From Chlamydiales bacterium (GTDB lineage Bacteria > Chlamydiota > Chlamydiia > Chlamydiales > JBDQID01): DNA of 16,735 bases. The DNA lies in the NCBI GenBank assembly GCA_047611865.1, contig JBLFWS010000061.1:1-16735 (forward strand). Direction: 5' to 3'. Of the stretch, positions 974-14,129 are shown piece after piece. The position numbers were made by a program, and so were the translations under genes. Every line of letters begins with the position of its first letter. Within the stretch, counting starts at the first letter, position 1. The notes beneath the pieces are model-generated. The model had not been told where the DNA came from and did not search any database. It saw only the letters and a program-made list of their open reading frames with translations.

Positions 974-2851
974 TTAAGCTCTGAACCATCCAAACCAGCG
1001 CCAGCTTTCATCACTAGTGACCGCTGGAGAGGTATGGCGGACAGCTTGTAGGGCTGTTGCCAGGTTTTCACCATTGGGACTTCCCCATCCTGTACAAGCA
1101 TCCCAGCCTTCTGTGGCCTTATACCCAGGCGTTGAGCTCACCTCGTTATCACCTTGCGTGATGTCATGGAAAGCGCCTCGGGACTCACCTATCTGGTATA
1201 GTTGTGGGTTTAAGAAACCCAAACGGGTGTCCATCTTTTGATTGAGCTGTGCAATCAATCCTGCCCAAAGAGGGGCCACAGCACTCGTTCCGCCTATGAC
1301 ACCCATTCCTTCTTTAAGACGAATCTCATATCCTGTGGAGGGATCAGCGACACCTGAAACATCGGGCACCCCTCGTCCCCAGTCTTTTCCCGTGTTTACG
1401 TTTACGGGCATATGAACAGCATTTTGGTAGCTTGGACGCTCCTCTAGCTCACTGATTCCACCACCTGTTGCTCCTCCATAGACATTATTCCAGACGACTT
1501 CGCTTTTGATCACATGATCAGCGGCTTCAAGTTTTGTACCTCCGCAAGAAAGTACATAGGGAGAGGCGGAGGGGAAGTCTACGTTTGCTTTATTATCCTG
1601 ATGAGGCCTCTCATCACTTGCACCCGCATCTCCAGCGGCTACACAAACACTTACATTGCGTACAGTAGCCGCTTCTTTAAAGGCTTGATCAAAGGATGTG
1701 CGATAGGGATTGTTTTGAGAGTCCCTTTGGTTCCAGACAGCTTCGGGAGAACCCCAGCTTATGGATATCACAGAGTTGTCATGTAATGGATCATGGGCTG
1801 CTTTTTTTACAGCACGGAGAAATCCTTCTGTGGTATTCGGGGCAAAATAAACAACGATGTCAGCCTCAGGAGCTACGGCACCTATGACTTCAATATCTAA
1901 GTAGACTTCTCCATCGGCATCTCTTGTTGGGCCATCGGGATCGTTTTTACCGCCAGCTACAGAAACACTGGTCACATTTGGAGGAGTTTCTAATCCGCAG
2001 TCTTCGGTGAAGTATTTTGTGAGGACTTCAGGATCATATCCTCCACCTAGCTCTATGATAGCTATCGACTGGCCTTTTCCAAGAGAGTCTTTGGGGAAAT
2101 TGTATATTTTAGAAAGGTCTGTGGGTAAAAAAGATTTTCTTTCACGAGTTTGACTTTCACTAGCGAAGCGAAACTTTGGTTGGAAAACGGGGCGAGTGTC
2201 CAGTCCAAAGACTCCCTCTATAATACCATGTAGAGATTCAGGCAAGTGGACAGGACCTGAGTGTCCACGATATTCGCCATTAGAATGTGAGTAGTTTTTT
2301 AGGGAAACACCAAAGGCTTTATTGATAGTTTTAGCAGTACCTGAGAGGACGACGATCCTTTCTCCGGCAGACGCTTCTACAATAGAAAGCCCATGAGCGT
2401 GAGAAAATTTCTCTACTAATTTTATGTCTTTTTTGTCAGCTCCGTATATTCGTGCAAATTCTTCTGCGGAGAGTGTTACTCTTTCAGTTTGTGGCTTTCC
2501 ATGGGCTTCTGTCATGGTGGGCAATTCTGGGTGTGATTCACGGTAGCGTAGATGAAGGGTGACTTCTACATGGTCATCTTCAGCAGGGGAGCCAATCATA
2601 GTAGCTCCTGTCATACGTGGAAGGCTGGAGTTGGGAATCGCCTTTAAGCTATGCATTGGATTGCGTTTGTGAGTTACGACATTTCGAGCAACTTCAGCAC
2701 CATCAAGTAATGAGATAGTACGGTTACTTAGCGGACTAATAGTATTTTGCACTTTATCATGAGATTCTGTTGCGGCTTCCACCAAAAGGGAACTTGAGTG
2801 AGCATGTACTCCTCCTCCTCCTGGACGTTCTGTGGCACTTGTAAAAGTCAT
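974..2851 (-). CDS. S53 family (kumamolisin/sedolisin-like) serine-carboxyl protease with prodomain
   Basis: Pro-kumamolisin-like prodomain (VEVTLHLR...FARIYGA...LSGTAKTINKAFGV). Catalytic motifs IAIIELGGG, GEVYLDIEV (Glu/Asp), SISWG, AAGDAG (oxyanion Asp), GRGVPDVSG, GGTSAVAPLWAG (Ser) and Ca-site GWDACTGWGS. Start placed at ATG 2851 because of an AGGAG SD; the ORF track extends to 2884. Confidence 0.95.
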   Translation of the reverse strand: MTFTSATERPGGGGVHAHSSSLLVEAATESHDKVQNTISPLSNRTISLLDGAEVARNVVTHKRNPMHSLKAIPNSSLPRMTGATMIGSPAEDDHVEVTLHLRYRESHPELPTMTEAHGKPQTERVTLSAEEFARIYGADKKDIKLVEKFSHAHGLSIVEASAGERIVVLSGTAKTINKAFGVSLKNYSHSNGEYRGHSGPVHLPESLHGIIEGVFGLDTRPVFQPKFRFASESQTRERKSFLPTDLSKIYNFPKDSLGKGQSIAIIELGGGYDPEVLTKYFTEDCGLETPPNVTSVSVAGGKNDPDGPTRDADGEVYLDIEVIGAVAPEADIVVYFAPNTTEGFLRAVKKAAHDPLHDNSVISISWGSPEAVWNQRDSQNNPYRTSFDQAFKEAATVRNVSVCVAAGDAGASDERPHQDNKANVDFPSASPYVLSCGGTKLEAADHVIKSEVVWNNVYGGATGGGISELEERPSYQNAVHMPVNVNTGKDWGRGVPDVSGVADPSTGYEIRLKEGMGVIGGTSAVAPLWAGLIAQLNQKMDTRLGFLNPQLYQIGESRGAFHDITQGDNEVSSTPGYKATEGWDACTGWGSPNGENLATALQAVRHTSPAVTSDESWRWFGWFRA

Positions 2852-2995
2852 AGGGGATCTCCTGGAATTTTCTGTGATCATCAAAGAATTTACTTACACA
2901 TCTGTAATTTGCCACCTTGGCACAAATGAGCATCAGAAATAAATATCCCTGTTTGAAATATTTGTAAATTGAAACATATAAAAAAAATGCTTAGG

Positions 2996-4594: not shown

Positions 4595-5991
4595 TCAGGG
4601 TGTTTCGATTTCTTGAATTTCGCCGAGTTCTTTTGCTGAGAGTGGACCTGTTTCTGAAGGGATTTTTTTAAGGATCTCAAAACGCTGGCGCAATAAAAGT
4701 TCCATCCCATTGTCAAAGTAGTCCACTTCAAGTCCATGTGCACCTTCTTTATACAAATCAATAAGAGCATTTAAGCGTTCGTCTGTTAGGTGATCGAGGA
4801 TGAATTGTTTACTTGCATCGGTGAATTTTTCTCTAGCAATATTTAGGTTTTTCCAAAGGTATTGTTTTATGGCTAGTGAGGAAGTAGATAACCCAGGGTT
4901 TTGTCTGGGAAGGCAATTGCCGTTGTCAATGCACTTGATGTCGACAATTTCTCCATCGTCTCCGAGTCTTATCATCCAGTTTTCTTCGTGTCGATCCAGG
5001 TTGGCAGTAAGGAAGTCAAAAAGCGTCATTTTTTGAAAGAGGGTTTTCTCGTCTTCGGAGAAAGACCGACCGGGCATTTCTAATTGTGACATCACTTCAG
5101 AAGCTTCTTGATACCCATGGAGGAATTCTAGAAAGGCACCGCTTTGATTTTCAATTTGAGTCATTACGGTACAAGGCGCCATGTTAAACCCAAAGGTTAT
5201 GTCAGCAAGAAAAGCCGCAACTTCACCCTTAGGTTGTGCCATGGGAGCTGTACTTAGCAGACTAATTTGCCCCACAGTCGAGTCAATCATTCGTTTAATG
5301 TTTTGTGTTAGTCCTAGCTGGTCTGAAGGGGTTTCGGGTTTGAAAACACCAATCTTTTCACCGTTGAGAGAAGCTAGTAAACTTGATCCGGTGGCTCCTT
5401 TGTTGGTTTTTTTTAAAGTCCTATCTTTATGGCAAGGCGGGGTTTTTGGATTTTATGGCTGAGCATGAGAGTGCGGGTGCTGATAGAGGTTTCATTGAGT
5501 TGAACGATTTTTTCAGAGAGATACTCCTCCCTTTTTTGGAAAGCCTTTAGTTTCGTATGGCTCTCTCCTATAATTTGAGGGGTACTTTTAAGTTCTCTTT
5601 CTTTTTCGGATGCTAAAAAGCTATCTTGCCAGCTTTTTATTTTGCTAATTTCTTTCCGGTTTTTTTCGAGGCTTTCTCTGGCTTCAGACAGGCTTTGGGT
5701 TCTACTTTTTAGTTCCTTATCTAATTGAGAGTAGTCAGAATCGATATACCTCAAGATATTGTTGTAGGCTTCGAGTTCATTGCGGTCGAAATGATTTATT
5801 GTCAGGCGAGAGAGTTTAGAAAGTAAAAAATACGTGATGGTTTTTTGTAGTGAGGCCTGGTCAAAGTTAAGGTTTTCTGCTGTGGAGGTTACTTCTATTA
5901 GTGCTTTTATCTTCACTACCAGGCGGGAAACAATCGCTTGCATGTTCTCATCTCCAATGGAGGCTTCTCCATTGGAGATGAGAATTTGCAT
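4595..5991 (-). pseudogene. Frameshifted PI4-kinase type II-like (PI3/PI4K superfamily) protein with an N-terminal coiled-coil region
   Basis: The frame of ORF 4595-5290 stays open upstream to 5452 and encodes KGATGSSLL...IGVFKPE (P-loop and Lys) before the annotated Met. It continues with GEVAAFLAD, GAFLEFLHG, LFDFLTANLDRHEENWMI and IDNGNCLP. The upstream ORF 5413-5991 overlaps this frame by ~40 nt and stops at a TAA within a T3A8 run. One extra base would fuse them into a ~465-aa protein. Confidence 0.8.
5945..5984. promoter_or_regulatory. Perfect 18-bp stem hairpin at the 5' end of the kinase gene
   Basis: ttctcatctccaatggag (5945-5962), loop gctt, ctccattggagatgagaa (5967-5984). Confidence 0.6.
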
Positions 5992-7198: not shown

Positions 7199-7281
7199 CA
7201 GTTCCCCTCTTGTGTTAAAAAATCAGACTTGAAAGAATGCTATGAGATTAATATGAGCTCAAGAAAATTAAAATAATCCAT

Positions 7282-8265
7282 ATGGAATTAATTCGGGGGA
7301 AAATGATTTCAAATAAAGGTCTACAGGCTTGTACTTCTGTTCTAATGATTCGCCCAGTTTCTTTTTGTGGGAACTTGGAAACTCTATCAACGAATGCATT
7401 CCAGAAAAAGGATCATGGCTTGTCCTTAGGGGAGATTCAGAGCAGGGCTTTGGAAGAGTTTGACAATTATGTGAAGATCTTGCGCTCTCATGATGTTCTC
7501 GTTCACACTTTCGAAGATAATTCTGAGACTCATACTCCGGATAGTATTTATCCCAATAATTGGTTATCTGTACATCCAGATGGAAAAATACTCACTTATC
7601 CAATGGCGACGGAAAGCAGGAGGTTGGAGAGGAGAAGCGACATTATTGATTTCATAAAAGGCCATTATCAAATAACAGATCATCATGATCTTGGACATTA
7701 TGCTTCTGAGGGGCGTTATCTGGAAGGTACGGGAAGTGTGGTCTTTGACTATCCCCATAAGCGAGCATATGCTTGCTTATCAGCGAGAACGGATCAGGGA
7801 TTGTTTGAGGAACTTTGTGAATATTTGGAATATGAGGCAATTAGTTTTAGAGCTGTTGATGCCAAGCTTACAGCCATTTACCACACAAACGTTATGATGC
7901 ACGTGGGAGAAAGCTGTGCTGTTGTTTGTTTGGAAGTCGTTCCTGACTTTGGCGAAAGAGAGAAAATCCTTTCATCATTGAGAGAAACAGGTCATGAAGT
8001 GCTCTTGATCTCTTTGGATCAGATGAAAAGTTTTTGTGCGAATATTCTGGAAGTATCCAATCATAACGGTGAGGTGCTTCTGCTTATGTCCGAGCAGGCT
8101 AGAAAAGCTTATACAAAGCAACAACTTAGGCTTCTTGAGAAGAATACAAAAATACTTTCCACCTCCCTACAGACTATCGAAAGTGCTGGTGGAGGTGGGG
8201 CTAGGTGTATGCTTGCGGGAATTCACGCTGTTTCCCAAGATTGCTCCATCACATTTTCTCCGTAG
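7282..8265 (+). CDS. ctlX: CtlX-like citrulline utilization hydrolase (amidinotransferase/arginine deiminase superfamily)
   Basis: Motifs VLMIRPVSF, EEFDNYVKILR, TPDSIYPNNW, YPM..ESRRLERR, YLEGTGSVV, AYACLSART, IYHTNVMM and IESAGGGGARCM. The start could instead be ATG 7303. Confidence 0.88.
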   Translation: MELIRGKMISNKGLQACTSVLMIRPVSFCGNLETLSTNAFQKKDHGLSLGEIQSRALEEFDNYVKILRSHDVLVHTFEDNSETHTPDSIYPNNWLSVHPDGKILTYPMATESRRLERRSDIIDFIKGHYQITDHHDLGHYASEGRYLEGTGSVVFDYPHKRAYACLSARTDQGLFEELCEYLEYEAISFRAVDAKLTAIYHTNVMMHVGESCAVVCLEVVPDFGEREKILSSLRETGHEVLLISLDQMKSFCANILEVSNHNGEVLLLMSEQARKAYTKQQLRLLEKNTKILSTSLQTIESAGGGGARCMLAGIHAVSQDCSITFSP

Positions 8266-9947
8266 AAGAGTTCATACTCCTTCAAAATAGCGTTCATATA
8301 AGGAAAAAAGTCTTCAGGGCAGTTCATTTCTTTTCCATCTACTATTAGTGGCTGTTTGCGTTCGGAGTAAGATTTTCTTTCTTCATGAATGGCTTGAAGG
8401 AGGGTAGCCCATGAATAGGATGGCTCTGAGTTCAGAAGCTTCTCGTAGGTTTCGTAAATTTCTTTGAGCAGGTTTGTTAAAGGGCTATCCGGTAAATCGA
8501 GGAAGCCATACATTCCGTTAAAGTTTTTTCGGGCTTCCCATAAGATTTCCTTGAGATTGCCGCTTTGCCGTTTTTTGGAAAGGACTGAATGCGTGGCTTT
8601 TCGGAGGTTCTCAAAATCGTAGCTTTCTTTAAATGAGCTTGTTTGAAAGAAGTGGATTTCTGCTCCGTGGGATTGAAGAAGATATACCAGTTCCTGATGT
8701 TGCCTTTCTGCCAGACCTTTGTTTACTCTTCCGATATTGTTCTTCATGTAAGGGTCATTGACGTATACGACGTCAAATACCCCTCTTGGAGATTGAATAA
8801 TCTGGATTTTATTGTTTTTTGTTTCTTCAGGGCTAAAAATATCCTCTTCTAGTTCAAGAATGAGGCATTTAGCTCCTCCACCTGCTTTGTAGAATTCTGA
8901 CAGGTTGATAGGGATGACTTCTAAGCCTCTTGTTTCTAGCTGTGTTTTTAGGGAGTAACTAACCCGGTGGTCTATGATGAAAGATTTTCCAATACAAACG
9001 GAATTGCAGGAGAAATTTTCAGCATCCTCTTTTGAAATACTTAGGGCGTCGGGAAAGGTCCTTTTTAAAAGACTTTGAGTCTCTTCACTAAAAGCTTGGG
9101 GGTAATACATGATGGTTTCACCAATGATTCTCCCATTTCTAATAATAGGAATTTCCCTTAAAGCAGTATCTAAGTGGTAAAAGTCTTCGGTGATAATTTC
9201 AGCGGGGATGATGTTAACTTTTTCGAAGTCTTCACCCATGAGTTCATGCATTTTATCTGTAACCCACTCAATGCTTTCTTTGGATGTGCGTATGCCCCAT
9301 CCAAAAACGATGTCTACCATATGGCCGTGCTTGACATACTTAATTTCAGCGCTGGCCTCGAAAGAAAGGTGATTGGGAACTTCGATGATTTGGTATCCGT
9401 TTTCAAGAAACCATGAGCGGTTATATTTTATTTCTTCCAAGCGGGTATCGTGGCCGTGCTCTGATGAGTAGTTACCAAGAAAGACATAGGGTTTTTTATT
9501 CTTAACAGGGACTATGAAGCCCGACTCTGCCCTGAAAACAATATCTGGAACTTGGCGTGAAATGTATCGTTGATATCTTTCAGAAATACGTACGATGTGT
9601 TGGTAGATTTCTTCTGAGGAAAAGCTTGATCTTAAGAGTTCTTTTTTCCTTTCGGATACTTCGTTGATCAATGTATTAAATAAGGATTCGGGACATGGCT
9701 GAATATCGCCTTTGCTTTTTAGATACAGCATAATCGCTGGGCCTAATTCTGTAGCCTCATCGAGGATTTCCTCAAGTTTTATTCCGGGAGCTTCCCTTTT
9801 TTCAATTTCGCGTTCTTTGTCGATAGATTTTTGAAGCTTTATTACGGAAAAGTTTGGAGTGCGAGAAATTAAATTCAGGTATCTTGACATGATCGACTCT
9901 AAGGGGAAATGGCTGCGTATATCAGATTCTTGTGTAGATGTTAACAT
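8223..9947 (-). CDS. Amidinotransferase/DDAH/arginine dihydrolase-like protein with permuted domain order and extra N- and C-terminal regions
   Basis: Motifs VPDIVF, SFEASAE, FGWGIRT, FYHLDT, MYYPQAF, EDAENFSCNSV and SEFYKAGGGAKCL, followed by the normally N-terminal segment SPRGVFDVVYVNDPYM..GRVNKGLAERQHQEL...HGAEIH. Start placed at ATG 9947 (GGAG SD); the ORF track begins at 10010. Overlaps the ctlX-like gene by 43 bp at the 3' ends. Confidence 0.85.
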   Translation of the reverse strand: MLTSTQESDIRSHFPLESIMSRYLNLISRTPNFSVIKLQKSIDKEREIEKREAPGIKLEEILDEATELGPAIMLYLKSKGDIQPCPESLFNTLINEVSERKKELLRSSFSSEEIYQHIVRISERYQRYISRQVPDIVFRAESGFIVPVKNKKPYVFLGNYSSEHGHDTRLEEIKYNRSWFLENGYQIIEVPNHLSFEASAEIKYVKHGHMVDIVFGWGIRTSKESIEWVTDKMHELMGEDFEKVNIIPAEIITEDFYHLDTALREIPIIRNGRIIGETIMYYPQAFSEETQSLLKRTFPDALSISKEDAENFSCNSVCIGKSFIIDHRVSYSLKTQLETRGLEVIPINLSEFYKAGGGAKCLILELEEDIFSPEETKNNKIQIIQSPRGVFDVVYVNDPYMKNNIGRVNKGLAERQHQELVYLLQSHGAEIHFFQTSSFKESYDFENLRKATHSVLSKKRQSGNLKEILWEARKNFNGMYGFLDLPDSPLTNLLKEIYETYEKLLNSEPSYSWATLLQAIHEERKSYSERKQPLIVDGKEMNCPEDFFPYMNAILKEYELFYGENVMEQSWETA

Positions 9948-10150
9948 GCTTGGCTCCAGAGGAAATAGTTGGATTTGTTTCGGTATATTCAAAAAGAGAG
10001 GCAAACACAATTTAGTGATCCTTTCAATAGGATATTGCGTATTTTGAAAGTATTTGCAGAGCGTTTATGGGAGATGGATCTTTTCTAGATGCGTAAATAT
10101 TTGATTTTAATATAGATAAGTGGTAATTTAGACGTTTTTATTAAGACTAT

Positions 10151-10567
10151 GTGGCTAATGTCGTGGGTAAATCCTTAAGTAAAACAGCAGCACTTTTATC
10201 TTTTCTTCTATGCCTTCTATTGGCAAATGCTTCTTTTACTACCCCAGAGGTGACTAAGGAGTCGCAAAAGCATAGTGTTATTTCGACACCTAAAAATCAA
10301 ATTTCTTCTGTTATCCTTGAAAGCTCAGGTCACGAAGAGCTTTTCAACGGATGTGAGACCAAGCCTAAGAAAGGGAGGGCCCACAGGGGAAAGTGGCAAA
10401 GCTCTTTTCCAGATTTCGGGTCTGACGATCTTGCTAGAGAGCTAAATGCGGGATTCCCTAAGCCATTGTGTAATAAGGCTATTACGGACAACGCCAAGCA
10501 AATATTTGGAAAATTACATTACTGCGAAGAAATTCTTTCTTCCAGGTGTCATCCACCTACGAAGTAA
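10151..10567 (+). CDS. Hypothetical secreted protein
   Basis: 138-aa ORF with a GTG start and a signal-peptide-like N-terminus (KTAALLSFLLCLLLANA). Fills the intergenic gap. Confidence 0.55.
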   Translation: MANVVGKSLSKTAALLSFLLCLLLANASFTTPEVTKESQKHSVISTPKNQISSVILESSGHEELFNGCETKPKKGRAHRGKWQSSFPDFGSDDLARELNAGFPKPLCNKAITDNAKQIFGKLHYCEEILSSRCHPPTK

Positions 10568-12509: not shown

Positions 12510-14129
12510 ATGGAATTAGGTCGTGCGGATTCTGTTTTGGTTCACCGGGCTTTAGAAGTTAAATCAAGTCATGAGAGTGAGTTATTTTCCAAGGCAAACG
12601 TAATTGGTGTGGATGTCGGTTTTAAATACGTAAGTGGCGAAAGAACAAACGAAGTAGCTATCAGAATTTTTGTTAGCAAAAAAGAAGAAGTTGAAACTTC
12701 TAATTTTCTTCCAAGAAGCCTTGATGGAATCAAAACAGATGTGATTATGGAGGAGATGTTTGTTCCCATAACTCAGGTGCCTCAAGCGGACCAGGCGTTA
12801 CCTAACAGCAACAGGTATGACCCTTTAGTAGGGGGAATTAGTGTAGGACCTACCAGATCTATAAACAGAACCGTTTATACAGGTACTTTAGGAGCTATTG
12901 TGCAAAAAGCAGGGGAAATTTTTTCTCTCAGTAATTTCCATGTATACGGGGTGAATGATGGATGGTCTAAAGGGGACGAAATAGCTCAGCCGAGTCGTGT
13001 TGATGCAGGAAAGTGCCCAAGGGATAATATCGGAAAGATTGAAGATGCCTGTCTGGGAAATAAGCTTAGTGGAAAAGAGACTACTGTTGATGCTGCAATT
13101 GCCACAATAGAAAATAGACAAGCTTCTAACGAGAATGCCAGTATTTTAAATATTGGTGTGGTGAGGGGAAGTGCAGAGCCTGTCTTAGGTCAGATTGTCC
13201 GAAAGCAGGGAAGAACGACAGGGCTGACACATGGATTCGTTGATGGGCTCGGAGGGACTGTCAATGTTGATTATGGTGGAACGCTAGGAATGGTATGCTT
13301 CACAAACCAGATTCAGATTATGCCTGATACCTCAGAGAACTCTTCTTATATTAATGGAGGGGATTCAGGGTCAGTTTCCGTAAACGATAACAATGAGATA
13401 ATAGGTCTGAATTTTGCAAGGTCAAGGCAATCTGAAAGGGCTTCTGCAAATGTATTCTCTGATGTGAAAAGGGCATTGGGGGTGGATACACTTCCGGCAT
13501 GGAAAAGTATCGGAGGAGCATTATCACAAGTTTCTGCTGGGTCGGGAAGCCACGTTTGGGGGATTAACCCGGATGGAGAGCTTGTTCATCGTGAGAATGA
13601 TGCATGGACTATGGTAGAAGGGGCCCTTACTCTGGTGTCATCAGGTTCTGATGGAGCTGTCTGGGGGCTAGATGCAGAGGGTAGTGCATTCAAAAGGGAA
13701 GAAAATAACTGGGTGAAAATGGGTGGGCAGCTAAGTCAAATATCTGTTGGTTCTGAAAGTCACATTTGGGGAGTGAGTATTGAAGGTGACGTTTTCAAGC
13801 GAAACGAGGAAGAATGGGTACAAGTTGACGGCTCTTTAACTCAGGTGTCTGTTGGGTCTGATGGAAGTGTTTGGGGAGTGAATTCTTCGGGAGAGGTTTT
13901 CCGTAGGGATGATAGTGCCTGGACCCAAATCGAAGGTCAGGTATTGTCGCAAATTTCTGTTGGATCAGAGGGTAAGGTTTGGGGATTAACTGATGAAGGG
14001 GAAATTTTTAAGCGGGAAAGTGAAAGCTGGAAGAAGATGCCGGTATACCTTTCCTCTATTTCCGTTGCTTCTGACAACTCCGTTTGGGGGATAGGTCGGG
14101 AAAATAGAATTTGGGAAATTACGGGGTGA
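12510..14129 (+). CDS. Trypsin-like (Nal1-like) serine protease fused to a six-repeat tectonin beta-propeller
   Basis: Prodomain ANVIGVDVGFK...AIRIFVSKK; GGISVG and GTLG; triad SNFHV (H144), VDAA (D194), GDSGS (S286); KQGRTTGLT. The C-terminus has six ~35-aa repeats of L-x-Q-(V/I)-S-V-G...(V/I)WG...G-x-(V/I)F-x-R...W. Confidence 0.9.
   Translation: MELGRADSVLVHRALEVKSSHESELFSKANVIGVDVGFKYVSGERTNEVAIRIFVSKKEEVETSNFLPRSLDGIKTDVIMEEMFVPITQVPQADQALPNSNRYDPLVGGISVGPTRSINRTVYTGTLGAIVQKAGEIFSLSNFHVYGVNDGWSKGDEIAQPSRVDAGKCPRDNIGKIEDACLGNKLSGKETTVDAAIATIENRQASNENASILNIGVVRGSAEPVLGQIVRKQGRTTGLTHGFVDGLGGTVNVDYGGTLGMVCFTNQIQIMPDTSENSSYINGGDSGSVSVNDNNEIIGLNFARSRQSERASANVFSDVKRALGVDTLPAWKSIGGALSQVSAGSGSHVWGINPDGELVHRENDAWTMVEGALTLVSSGSDGAVWGLDAEGSAFKREENNWVKMGGQLSQISVGSESHIWGVSIEGDVFKRNEEEWVQVDGSLTQVSVGSDGSVWGVNSSGEVFRRDDSAWTQIEGQVLSQISVGSEGKVWGLTDEGEIFKRESESWKKMPVYLSSISVASDNSVWGIGRENRIWEITG
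13500..14120 (+). repeat. Six coding tandem tectonin-like repeats (~105 bp each)
   Basis: Repeat cores SHVWGINPDG, GAVWGLDAEG, SHIWGVSIEG, GSVWGVNSSG, GKVWGLTDEG, NSVWGIGREN. Confidence 0.88.

Follow-up and report, generated by a model that had tools for sequence, protein, structure and literature searches.

What becomes of a pentein enzyme when the first blade of its propeller is placed after the last, and what might such an enzyme do? These questions are raised by a gene on the minus strand of a 16,735-base stretch of Chlamydiales DNA (contig JBLFWS010000061.1, C61). The stretch, here called the window, is the entire contig and belongs to assembly G000 (GCA_047611865.1), which is 3.59 Mb in size and 95.5% complete. 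The closest relatives of the window's genes are in a metagenome-assembled genome (MAG) of "Candidatus Anoxychlamydiales". A preliminary description, made from the DNA letters, had read the gene product as a permuted arginine dihydrolase-like enzyme with an altered pocket and extra domains at both ends. As judged from profile matches and predicted structures, the protein, P0002, is an ArgZ/AgrE-like pentein hydrolase with a genuine circular permutation that has become fixed in evolution.

The longest open reading frame (ORF) of the permuted gene extends from 8223 to 10010 on the minus strand and encodes 595 amino acid residues (aa) from a TTG start. The favoured start is the ATG at 9945–9947, which has a GGAG sequence 7 nt upstream. 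From this ATG, the gene (8223–9947, minus strand) has 574 codons plus a stop at 8223–8225, encoding the 574-aa P0002. The numbering of P0002, used throughout unless stated, equals that of the preliminary description, which followed the 595-aa ORF, minus 21.

Sequence Evidence for a Swapped Blade Order

In canonical relatives, blade 1 comes first and the Cys-bearing blade comes last. This module order is broken in P0002, whose polypeptide has the order flank repeat 1, blades 2–5, a 13-aa linker, blade 1, and flank repeat 2. The layout is as follows, with all features on the minus strand. An N-terminal flank (aa 1–132; 9552–9947) precedes pentein blades 2–5 (aa 133–366; 8850–9551), which begin with the motif VPDIVFRAESG at aa 133 and hold D135, E141, R169, E197, R220, H258, D260, N315, and C361. 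The Cys-bearing sequence SEFYKAGGGAKCL contains C361, the C382 of the preliminary description, and its E218 and H279 are present as E197 and H258; the codons were verified. The linker (aa 367–379; 8811–8849) connects the termini that correspond to the canonical C- and N-termini. After the Cys-bearing strand and this 13-residue linker comes the segment beginning IIQSPRGVFDVVYVNDPYMKNN... (aa 382–434; nt ~8645–8805), which lies in blade 1 (aa 380–436; 8640–8810), the blade that holds D398 and H417. A C-terminal flank (aa 437–574; 8226–8639), helical and modelled with low confidence, completes the protein. Every statement of the preliminary description about the ORF, the motifs, the residues, and the swapped segment order proved correct.

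Two kinds of search recover the domain in two pieces. When PDB sequences were searched with phmmer, the ArgZ/AgrE chain 6lrf was matched twice, with the order swapped. The large piece aligns query residues 155–391 with 6lrf 64–273 (81.3 bits), and the small piece aligns 400–449 with 6lrf 3–52 (9.6 bits), query positions being those of the 595-aa ORF. A pentein profile was built from 101 canonical homologues of 255–300 aa each. Against it, aa 129–366 match profile positions 57–263 (185.8 bits, E 5.5e-58), and aa 385–436 match positions 7–57 (27.9 bits, E 7.7e-10). Jointly, the two pieces tile the canonical profile exactly, in swapped order, as the preliminary description had predicted for a profile search. 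Residues 1–128 and 437–574 have no match to the canonical pentein profile, even with filters off.

The same two-piece swapped pattern is found in seven of ten other family proteins (P0003, P0004, P0005, P0006, P0007, P0011, and P0012); a search for homologues with the same order had been proposed in the preliminary description. As for the remaining three, the small piece is weak in P0008 (E 0.16), only the large piece was detected in P0009 with this profile, and P0010 is a fragment.

The Predicted Structure

The full-length AlphaFold model, made with 11 sequences, has a mean pLDDT (predicted local distance difference test score) of 68.5; its core is confident and its C-terminal flank poorly modelled. 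It superimposes on ArgZ with Z 23.1 and an rmsd (root-mean-square deviation) of 1.8 Å over 211 of 272 residues. A model of the domain, aa 125–445, made with 60 sequences, reaches a pLDDT of 89.5 and a pTM of 0.90, with the blade-1 helix and strand at pLDDT 95–97. The predicted structure is an α/β propeller of five β-β-α-β modules.

The domain model was searched against 48,161 PDB representatives. ArgZ (6juz_A) aligns with Z 24.7 and an rmsd of 1.7 Å, with 213 of 272 residues aligned between model 7–248 and chain 60–275. This alignment takes in four blades only, and ArgZ blade 1 and the tail of the model are left unmatched. eIF6, a minimal symmetric five-blade pentein, is covered whole, and the match includes the C-terminal segment of the model: for 4v8p_AJ, 214 of 226 residues align (Z 10.9; model 9–307, chain 7–225), and for 1g61_B, 211 of 225 (Z 10.7; model 10–305, whole chain). 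It follows that, in the model, residues 256–310 (aa 380–434) occupy the fifth blade and close the ring. Closure by the C-terminal segment is what circular permutation predicts. The new termini fall between blades 1 and 2, and the linker connects the old termini. Swapped profile matches, domain model, and eIF6 coverage together bear out the earlier proposal of a naturally permuted pentein fold that keeps its Cys, His, and Glu.

The assignment of the first blade to aa 1–132 (aa 22–153 in the longer ORF), which would leave the C-terminal piece as a remnant of a second domain, was considered and rejected. That flank has no match to the pentein profile, and in the full-length model aa 15–130 form seven helices, with no strand.

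Two Homologous Helical Flanks

The preliminary description took the sequences on either side of the enzyme domain to be extra, helical, and unrelated. They do sit on the new termini, as was said, and they are conserved; the flanks are, however, homologous to each other. When profiles of the N- and C-terminal flanks were compared with hhalign, they aligned over 63 columns with a probability of 74.6%, E 2.6e-5, and a score of 33. Reversal, as a control, gave a score of 8.3, and the scores of 20 column shuffles stayed at or below 13.2. The two flanks are therefore copies of one helical repeat of about 70 aa, copy 1 at aa 9–80 (9708–9923) and copy 2 at aa 487–559 (8271–8489). Each protein has exactly two copies, a count that is circular, since these very copies had served to build the model; in each of four genomes there are exactly two matches, both within the permuted gene. 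The two copies probably pack against one another next to the new termini.

Neither flank matches a family in Pfam or NCBIfam. An ESM Atlas search with aa 1–132 and 437–574 returned short fragments labelled DDAH or ADI (arginine deiminase) with feature scores of 0.82–0.91, the shared features being below trust level, and structures with template-modelling (TM) scores of at most 0.54; we judged these weak leads uninformative. A role for the repeat as a general linker of giant proteins was also considered and set aside, given just two copies per protein and two per genome.

Family, Phylogeny, and Distribution

The permuted layout occurs in 11 proteins, from chlamydiae, from giant Omnitrophota proteins, and from unplaced metagenomic sequences. 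In a tree of 114 rows, calculated from the columns of blades 2–5, all 11 permuted rows fall into a single clade with an SH-aLRT value of 99. The clade has a single origin. It splits into one subclade of proteins of about 2600 aa and another with all remaining members. Homologues at 39–47% identity are collinear with P0002 from flank to flank, and this level of conservation between chlamydiae and Omnitrophota extends over the whole cassette of about 550 aa, flanks and enzyme domain together. In addition, Logan contigs of three runs labelled as ice metagenomes each cover 7200–10200 of the window with 0 differences; these three runs may be source samples of the assembly. Coverage of the stretch by a further run, X4, is partial. 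The permuted arrangement is not an assembly artefact, a possibility that the preliminary description had allowed for.

Members of the family are rare: four of the 400 chlamydial genomes scored have one, the window's own among them and the other three from a single family, f5 (three of 69). The genomes of 60 relatives gave no match with a single-protein query. A word-index search gave one match besides the window's own protein. There are, besides, about ten representatives; a metagenome scan added only one of the f5 contigs, L002, again. Deposited names are automatic annotations: P0004 is entered as "arginine deiminase", and P0005 as "aromatic amino acid lyase". Another f5 locus, L003, is in a MAG deposited as 'uncultured bacterium' (G286), and near the homologue there is a gene for a topoisomerase I that carries a SWIB domain at its C-terminus (L003:4127–6715, plus strand). 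Fusion of topoisomerase I to SWIB is typical of chlamydiae, and its presence agrees with placement of G286 in the same order.

The cassette also occurs inside much longer polypeptides. Two of these are giants, the Omnitrophota protein P0005, deposited as a partial sequence of 5866 aa, and P0006, of 7556 aa. The proteins of about 2600 aa, P0007–P0009, contain it alongside Peptidase_M20 and GNAT domains. The Omnitrophota MAG contig that encodes the same protein as P0005 (L004:2–14863, plus strand) reads as one open frame, longer than 4954 aa. Its domains include two like 2-phosphoglycerate kinase, HEAT repeats, the permuted cassette, carbamate kinase, and one like histidine ammonia-lyase, so that P0005 resembles a giant multi-enzyme polypeptide. 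A different ending is seen in P0011, 343 aa long and encoded on a contig of 1153 bases: after the end of the permuted domain (the last blade and blade 1), an HNH_3 endonuclease domain takes the place of the usual C-terminal flank repeat.

Tandem duplication followed by truncation is the usual route to a circular permutation. P0013 (667 aa, metagenomic, on a 2273-base contig) has a tandem pair of canonical ArgZ-like domains, both complete, at aa 80–349 and 390–665; therefore, the raw material for permutation does occur in the family. P0013 itself was rejected as the direct ancestor of the permuted clade, its domains grouping with canonical sequences in the tree. An origin by recent duplication of the neighbouring CtlX gene was likewise rejected (pairwise BLAST E 0.056).

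The Active Site

The active site can be read with the help of related enzymes. According to the available text of the NnhA paper (PMC11659421), ADI and DDAH carry a Cys-His-Glu triad, and the guanidino group is held by an Asp located two positions past the His, where the DDAHs compared there have Lys, fitting methyl groups. A second Asp faces the guanidino group from the opposite side; the substrate carboxylate is bound by two Arg residues, and the substrate amine by one Asp. The NnhA positions given in that text, G143, W149, M168, E197, S216, H260, D262, N311, and C357, have a spacing that equals that of profile columns 63, 69, 88, 116, 135, 164, 166, 213, and 258. In P0002 these columns are D135, E141, R169, E197, R220, H258, D260, N315, and C361.

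C361, H258, and E197 thus align to invariant columns 258, 164, and 116, and the Cys nucleophile and the His-Glu pair are present. R169, E172, E197, R220, and H258 are conserved in all ten aligned members and are invariant columns in canonical relatives. C361 is conserved in seven of the ten; in P0007–P0009, the proteins fused to Peptidase_M20 (ArgE/DapE-like) and a GNAT acetyltransferase, Ser replaces the nucleophile, and there are further active-site changes. The cassette of these three may be a pseudoenzyme or have altered chemistry. D135, at the α-amino position, and R169 and R220, at the α-carboxylate positions, are conserved in all ten.

Of the nine columns, D260 and N315 included, the family keeps all but two, that of the nucleophile and column 69. 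At column 69, 85% of canonical relatives have Asn (Asn71 of ArgZ), and ten of ten permuted members have Glu or Asp (E141 in P0002). The pocket is changed elsewhere across the family as well. In blade 1, an Asn that is invariant in canonical proteins is Asp (D398) or another residue, and a conserved canonical Trp is His (H417) in eight of eight members. A GD motif has become AE.

The change at column 69 may bear on the chemistry. As the available text of the GapMind paper (PMC9007349) has it, the two substrate-binding motifs of ADIs (FTRD and HLD) each hold an Asp, and those of the putative citrullinase CtlX (FPNN and HTN) an Asn. In our profile alignment, a single column holds the Asp of a canonical ADI from G202, an f5 genome (FMRD), the Asn of the window's CtlX (YPNN), the Asn of canonical relatives (FTAN), and E141 of P0002 (FRAE). 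Taking the two positions together, ADI is Asp/Asp and acts on a guanidino group, CtlX is Asn/Asn and acts on a ureido group, and ArgZ is Asn/Asp and carries out both steps. The permuted family, Glu (or Asp)/Asp, is predicted to act on guanidino groups only. A role for Asn71 of ArgZ in the second step of the reaction would fit the title of PDB entry 6juz, which names ArgZ(N71S) with a reaction intermediate bound covalently.

On this sequence comparison, P0002 most likely acts on free L-arginine or a close analogue and yields a ureido product. Since D135, R169, and R220 are kept, a free amino acid is favoured over a peptidyl substrate. Since both guanidino positions are acidic (E141 and D260), instead of the Asn/Asp of ArgZ, the reaction probably stops at citrulline.

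Gene Context

In the window, the permuted gene converges with a gene for a CtlX-type putative citrullinase (7282–8265, plus strand). The CtlX protein scores 381.3 bits against a cut-off of 334 for NF046062 and has the YPNN and HTN motifs. The 3′ end of ctlX overlaps the permuted gene by 43 nt (8223–8265), which leaves no space for separate terminators. G000 has CtlX but no match to the PF02274 ADI family or to arcC, at 95.5% completeness.

ADI, arcC, and OTC are all present in the three f5 genomes, where CtlX was not found. In G202, the permuted gene is in a cluster with an amino-acid permease, a LysE exporter, a canonical ADI (arcA), carbamate kinase, and OTC; the amino-acid kinase gene of this cluster is the genome's arcC match (418 bits). 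At L002 and L003, the permuted gene comes after a polar amino-acid ABC transporter and before argS. The binding protein of this transporter has its best match to the Lys/Arg/Orn type, at 140 and 127 bits, below the cut-off of 256. In the Omnitrophota giant P0005, a carbamate kinase domain (278.7 bits) follows the cassette by about 130 aa; the second giant protein, P0006, has no carbamate kinase domain. Thus, in four separate settings the gene context is arginine or citrulline metabolism. Anoxychlamydiales are reported, in the available text of PMC8242063, to use the ADI pathway for ATP.

Three of the five stand-alone proteins scored (P0003, P0004, and the product of the L003 gene) have N-termini that resemble signal peptides, on hydrophobicity only. 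P0002 and the G202 protein have no hydrophobic N-terminus.

Elsewhere in the window, eukaryote-like or effector-like genes are interspersed with several orphan ORFs. The former include genes for a sedolisin-like protease with a Pro-kumamolisin activation domain and an S8 domain (974–2884, minus strand), a small protein with a sub-threshold match to PI3/PI4-kinase (4595–5290, minus strand; 23.8 bits, the cut-off being 27.1), and a tectonin-domain protein of 539 aa (12510–14129, plus strand). The orphan ORFs have zero Pfam matches at E up to 0.5.

A Proposed Arginine-to-Ornithine Route and Its Alternatives

We consider it probable, though well short of certain, that the permuted pentein hydrolyses the guanidino group of free L-arginine via C361 and stops at citrulline, from which CtlX makes ornithine. 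Hydrolysis of L-arginine, or of a very close analogue, would proceed through a covalent thiouronium intermediate on C361. The permuted enzyme would thus convert arginine to citrulline, and in the window's genome the adjacent CtlX would convert citrulline to ornithine, making the pair a two-enzyme equivalent of arginine dihydrolase. In other genomes, OTC and carbamate kinase would consume the citrulline.

Several points weigh against this proposal. The placement of the blades depends on AlphaFold models, and the function of CtlX itself rests on genetics only, according to the available text of PMC9007349. E141 is one carbon longer than the Asp of deiminases; a Glu at this first position, together with the family-wide changes in blade 1, makes a different guanidino substrate possible. 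The nearest relatives in sequence and fold are dihydrolases, not deiminases. The permuted gene and ctlX are convergent and do not form an operon, and the carbamate kinase fusion is present in just one of the two giant proteins. In the f5 genomes, which possess a canonical ADI anyway, the presence of another deiminase would call for a separate explanation. Finally, the signal-peptide-like N-termini of three of five homologues suggest a different compartment, periplasmic or exported.

The closeness to dihydrolases leads to the first alternative, that P0002 is a permuted arginine dihydrolase which takes arginine to ornithine, CO2, and two ammonia, with CtlX a coincidental neighbour or a scavenger of citrulline. 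The best matches of P0002 are indeed to ArgZ/AgrE (NF052232, 132 bits; 6lrf, E 1.3e-25; Z 23–25), and P0002 retains the catalytic set as well as the residues that bind the amino acid. However, Asn71 is replaced by Glu or Asp in ten of ten members, and Asn at this position is a ureido-type feature that ArgZ has in common with CtlX. The score is far under the curated cut-off of 450. The context, moreover, ties the gene to consumers of citrulline, be it CtlX, OTC with carbamate kinase, or a fused carbamate kinase. We regard this alternative as rather unlikely.

A second alternative replaces arginine by another free guanidino amino acid supplied by the host, such as a methylarginine, homoarginine, canavanine, or N-acyl-arginine, whose ureido product would enter the citrulline route. 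Chlamydiae have a host-dependent lifestyle. The changes of Asn71 to Glu or Asp, of the blade-1 Asn to Asp and Trp to His, and of GD to AE extend through the family and would suit such a substrate, as would the presence of the permuted gene besides a canonical ADI in the f5 genomes and the 126 bits that P0002 scores on the Mtb-type DDAH model. Against this, the latter score is far under its cut-off of 300, as are scores on DDAH models generally, and P0002 has the HLD Asp of ADI where the DDAHs compared in the available text of PMC11659421 have Lys. This alternative seems to us unlikely.

Still less likely is a host-directed or exported effector, that is, a modifier of host proteins like the peptidyl-arginine deiminases (PADs), or a secreted enzyme that depletes arginine. 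The preliminary description had raised the possibility that the protein, with its altered pocket, acts on a different or macromolecular guanidino substrate, for example as a host-directed effector. Compatible with such a role are the chlamydial genome, the orphan and eukaryote-like neighbours (the weak PI3/PI4-kinase-like match and the tectonin domain among them), the hydrophobic N-termini of three of the five stand-alone proteins scored, the conserved extra domains, and the cassette within giant Omnitrophota proteins. P0002, however, lacks a hydrophobic N-terminus and keeps the α-amino and α-carboxylate positions (D135, R169, and R220), contrary to what a peptidyl substrate would lead one to expect. 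PAD chains fit its models less well (Z 11–14) than ArgZ does (Z 23–25), and the context is metabolic, and related to arginine, in all four settings. The earlier suggestion, and with it a peptidyl-arginine substrate, is thus largely set aside as unsupported.

That P0002 is a catalytically dead or decaying relic is hardly credible, for, whatever the Ser and other active-site changes in P0007–P0009 may mean for that subclade, P0002 and six others keep Cys, His, Glu, and all the binding residues, its frame is intact, and the whole 550-aa cassette is conserved from chlamydiae to Omnitrophota.

Meaning of the Permutation

In the published literature that we searched, with most subscription journals outside the search, no natural circular permutation was found in the pentein, or guanidino-group modifying, superfamily. 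Within that literature the permutation is new for the superfamily, and it is fixed in a clade that spans at least two phyla. It also creates a problem for annotation, as linear family models detect just four-fifths of the permuted domain and score far under their cut-offs. If the proposed arginine-to-ornithine route is right, a Glu/Asp enzyme beside an Asn/Asn CtlX offers a testable two-step path in a genome with no detected ADI or carbamate kinase. The permuted family is, in addition, a natural test of the residue that divides deiminase from dihydrolase chemistry.

One may go further, although we hold the following idea to be unlikely. The flank repeats might clamp the new termini, turning the enzyme into a portable cassette that can be spliced into any polypeptide, with the altered pocket (Glu/Asp, together with the Asp and His of blade 1) giving a guanidino substrate or product beyond those of ADI, DDAH, and ArgZ. 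If true, this would explain why the 550-aa unit is found in chlamydiae as an independent enzyme, exported in some cases, and also within Omnitrophota proteins of 5,900–7,600 residues that string metabolic enzymes together.

Comparison with Known Systems

P0002 falls below the curated cut-off of every named NCBIfam family, and its place among penteins is best seen from the individual comparisons. The five blades of eIF6 (1g61, 4v8p) align serially over the whole chain; eIF6 has no catalytic residues and 6–9% identity, and it served as a symmetric ruler only. The DDAHs of P. aeruginosa (1h70) and human (DDAH-1) share the pentein fold (Z ~16–17), Cys-His-Glu, and an acidic first guanidino position. 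They differ in the Lys found two residues after the catalytic His in the DDAHs compared in the available text of PMC11659421, where P0002 has Asp260, and identity is 12–15%. The scores on DDAH models are 126 bits against 300 for NF045659 (Mtb-type) and 14.7 bits against 450 for NF045658.

CtlX (NF046062) belongs to the same superfamily and has the same Cys-bearing C-terminal motif as P0002. It has the canonical blade order and the Asn/Asn pair of a ureido substrate, in contrast to the Glu/Asp of P0002. With ADI (ArcA, PF02274), P0002 has in common two acidic guanidino positions, the catalytic triad, and an arginine-catabolic gene context; the first position is Glu in P0002, not Asp, and the order is permuted. 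ADIs have a helical insertion domain, as the available text of PMC11659421 describes; the enzyme domain of P0002 is about 300 aa. The Pfam ADI model gives 26.9 bits against a cut-off of 22.8, in its C-terminal part only (aa 327–383 of the 595-aa ORF), and TIGR01078 (ArcA) gives 18.4 bits against 489.

The N-terminal domain of ArgZ (Sll1336) and AgrE (Alr4995), known from PDB entries 6juy, 6juz, 6jv0, 6jv1, and 6lrf-h, is the closest in sequence and fold, with about 30% identity and E 1.3e-25 for 6lrf. The Cys-His-Glu set, the HLD motif, and two invariant Arg residues are held in common. P0002 scores 132.3 bits against a cut-off of 450 for NF052232 and 131.1 bits against 1025 for NF052231, and its match to the bifunc_ArgZ profile is confined to positions 58–278 of 696. 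P0002 is without the ornithine cyclodeaminase-type C-terminal domain, no Pfam or NCBIfam family matching outside its pentein part, and Asn71 of ArgZ is Glu. The blade order of P0002 is 2-3-4-5-1, as against 1-2-3-4-5 in ArgZ and AgrE, and the rearranged domain is set between two homologous helical flanks.

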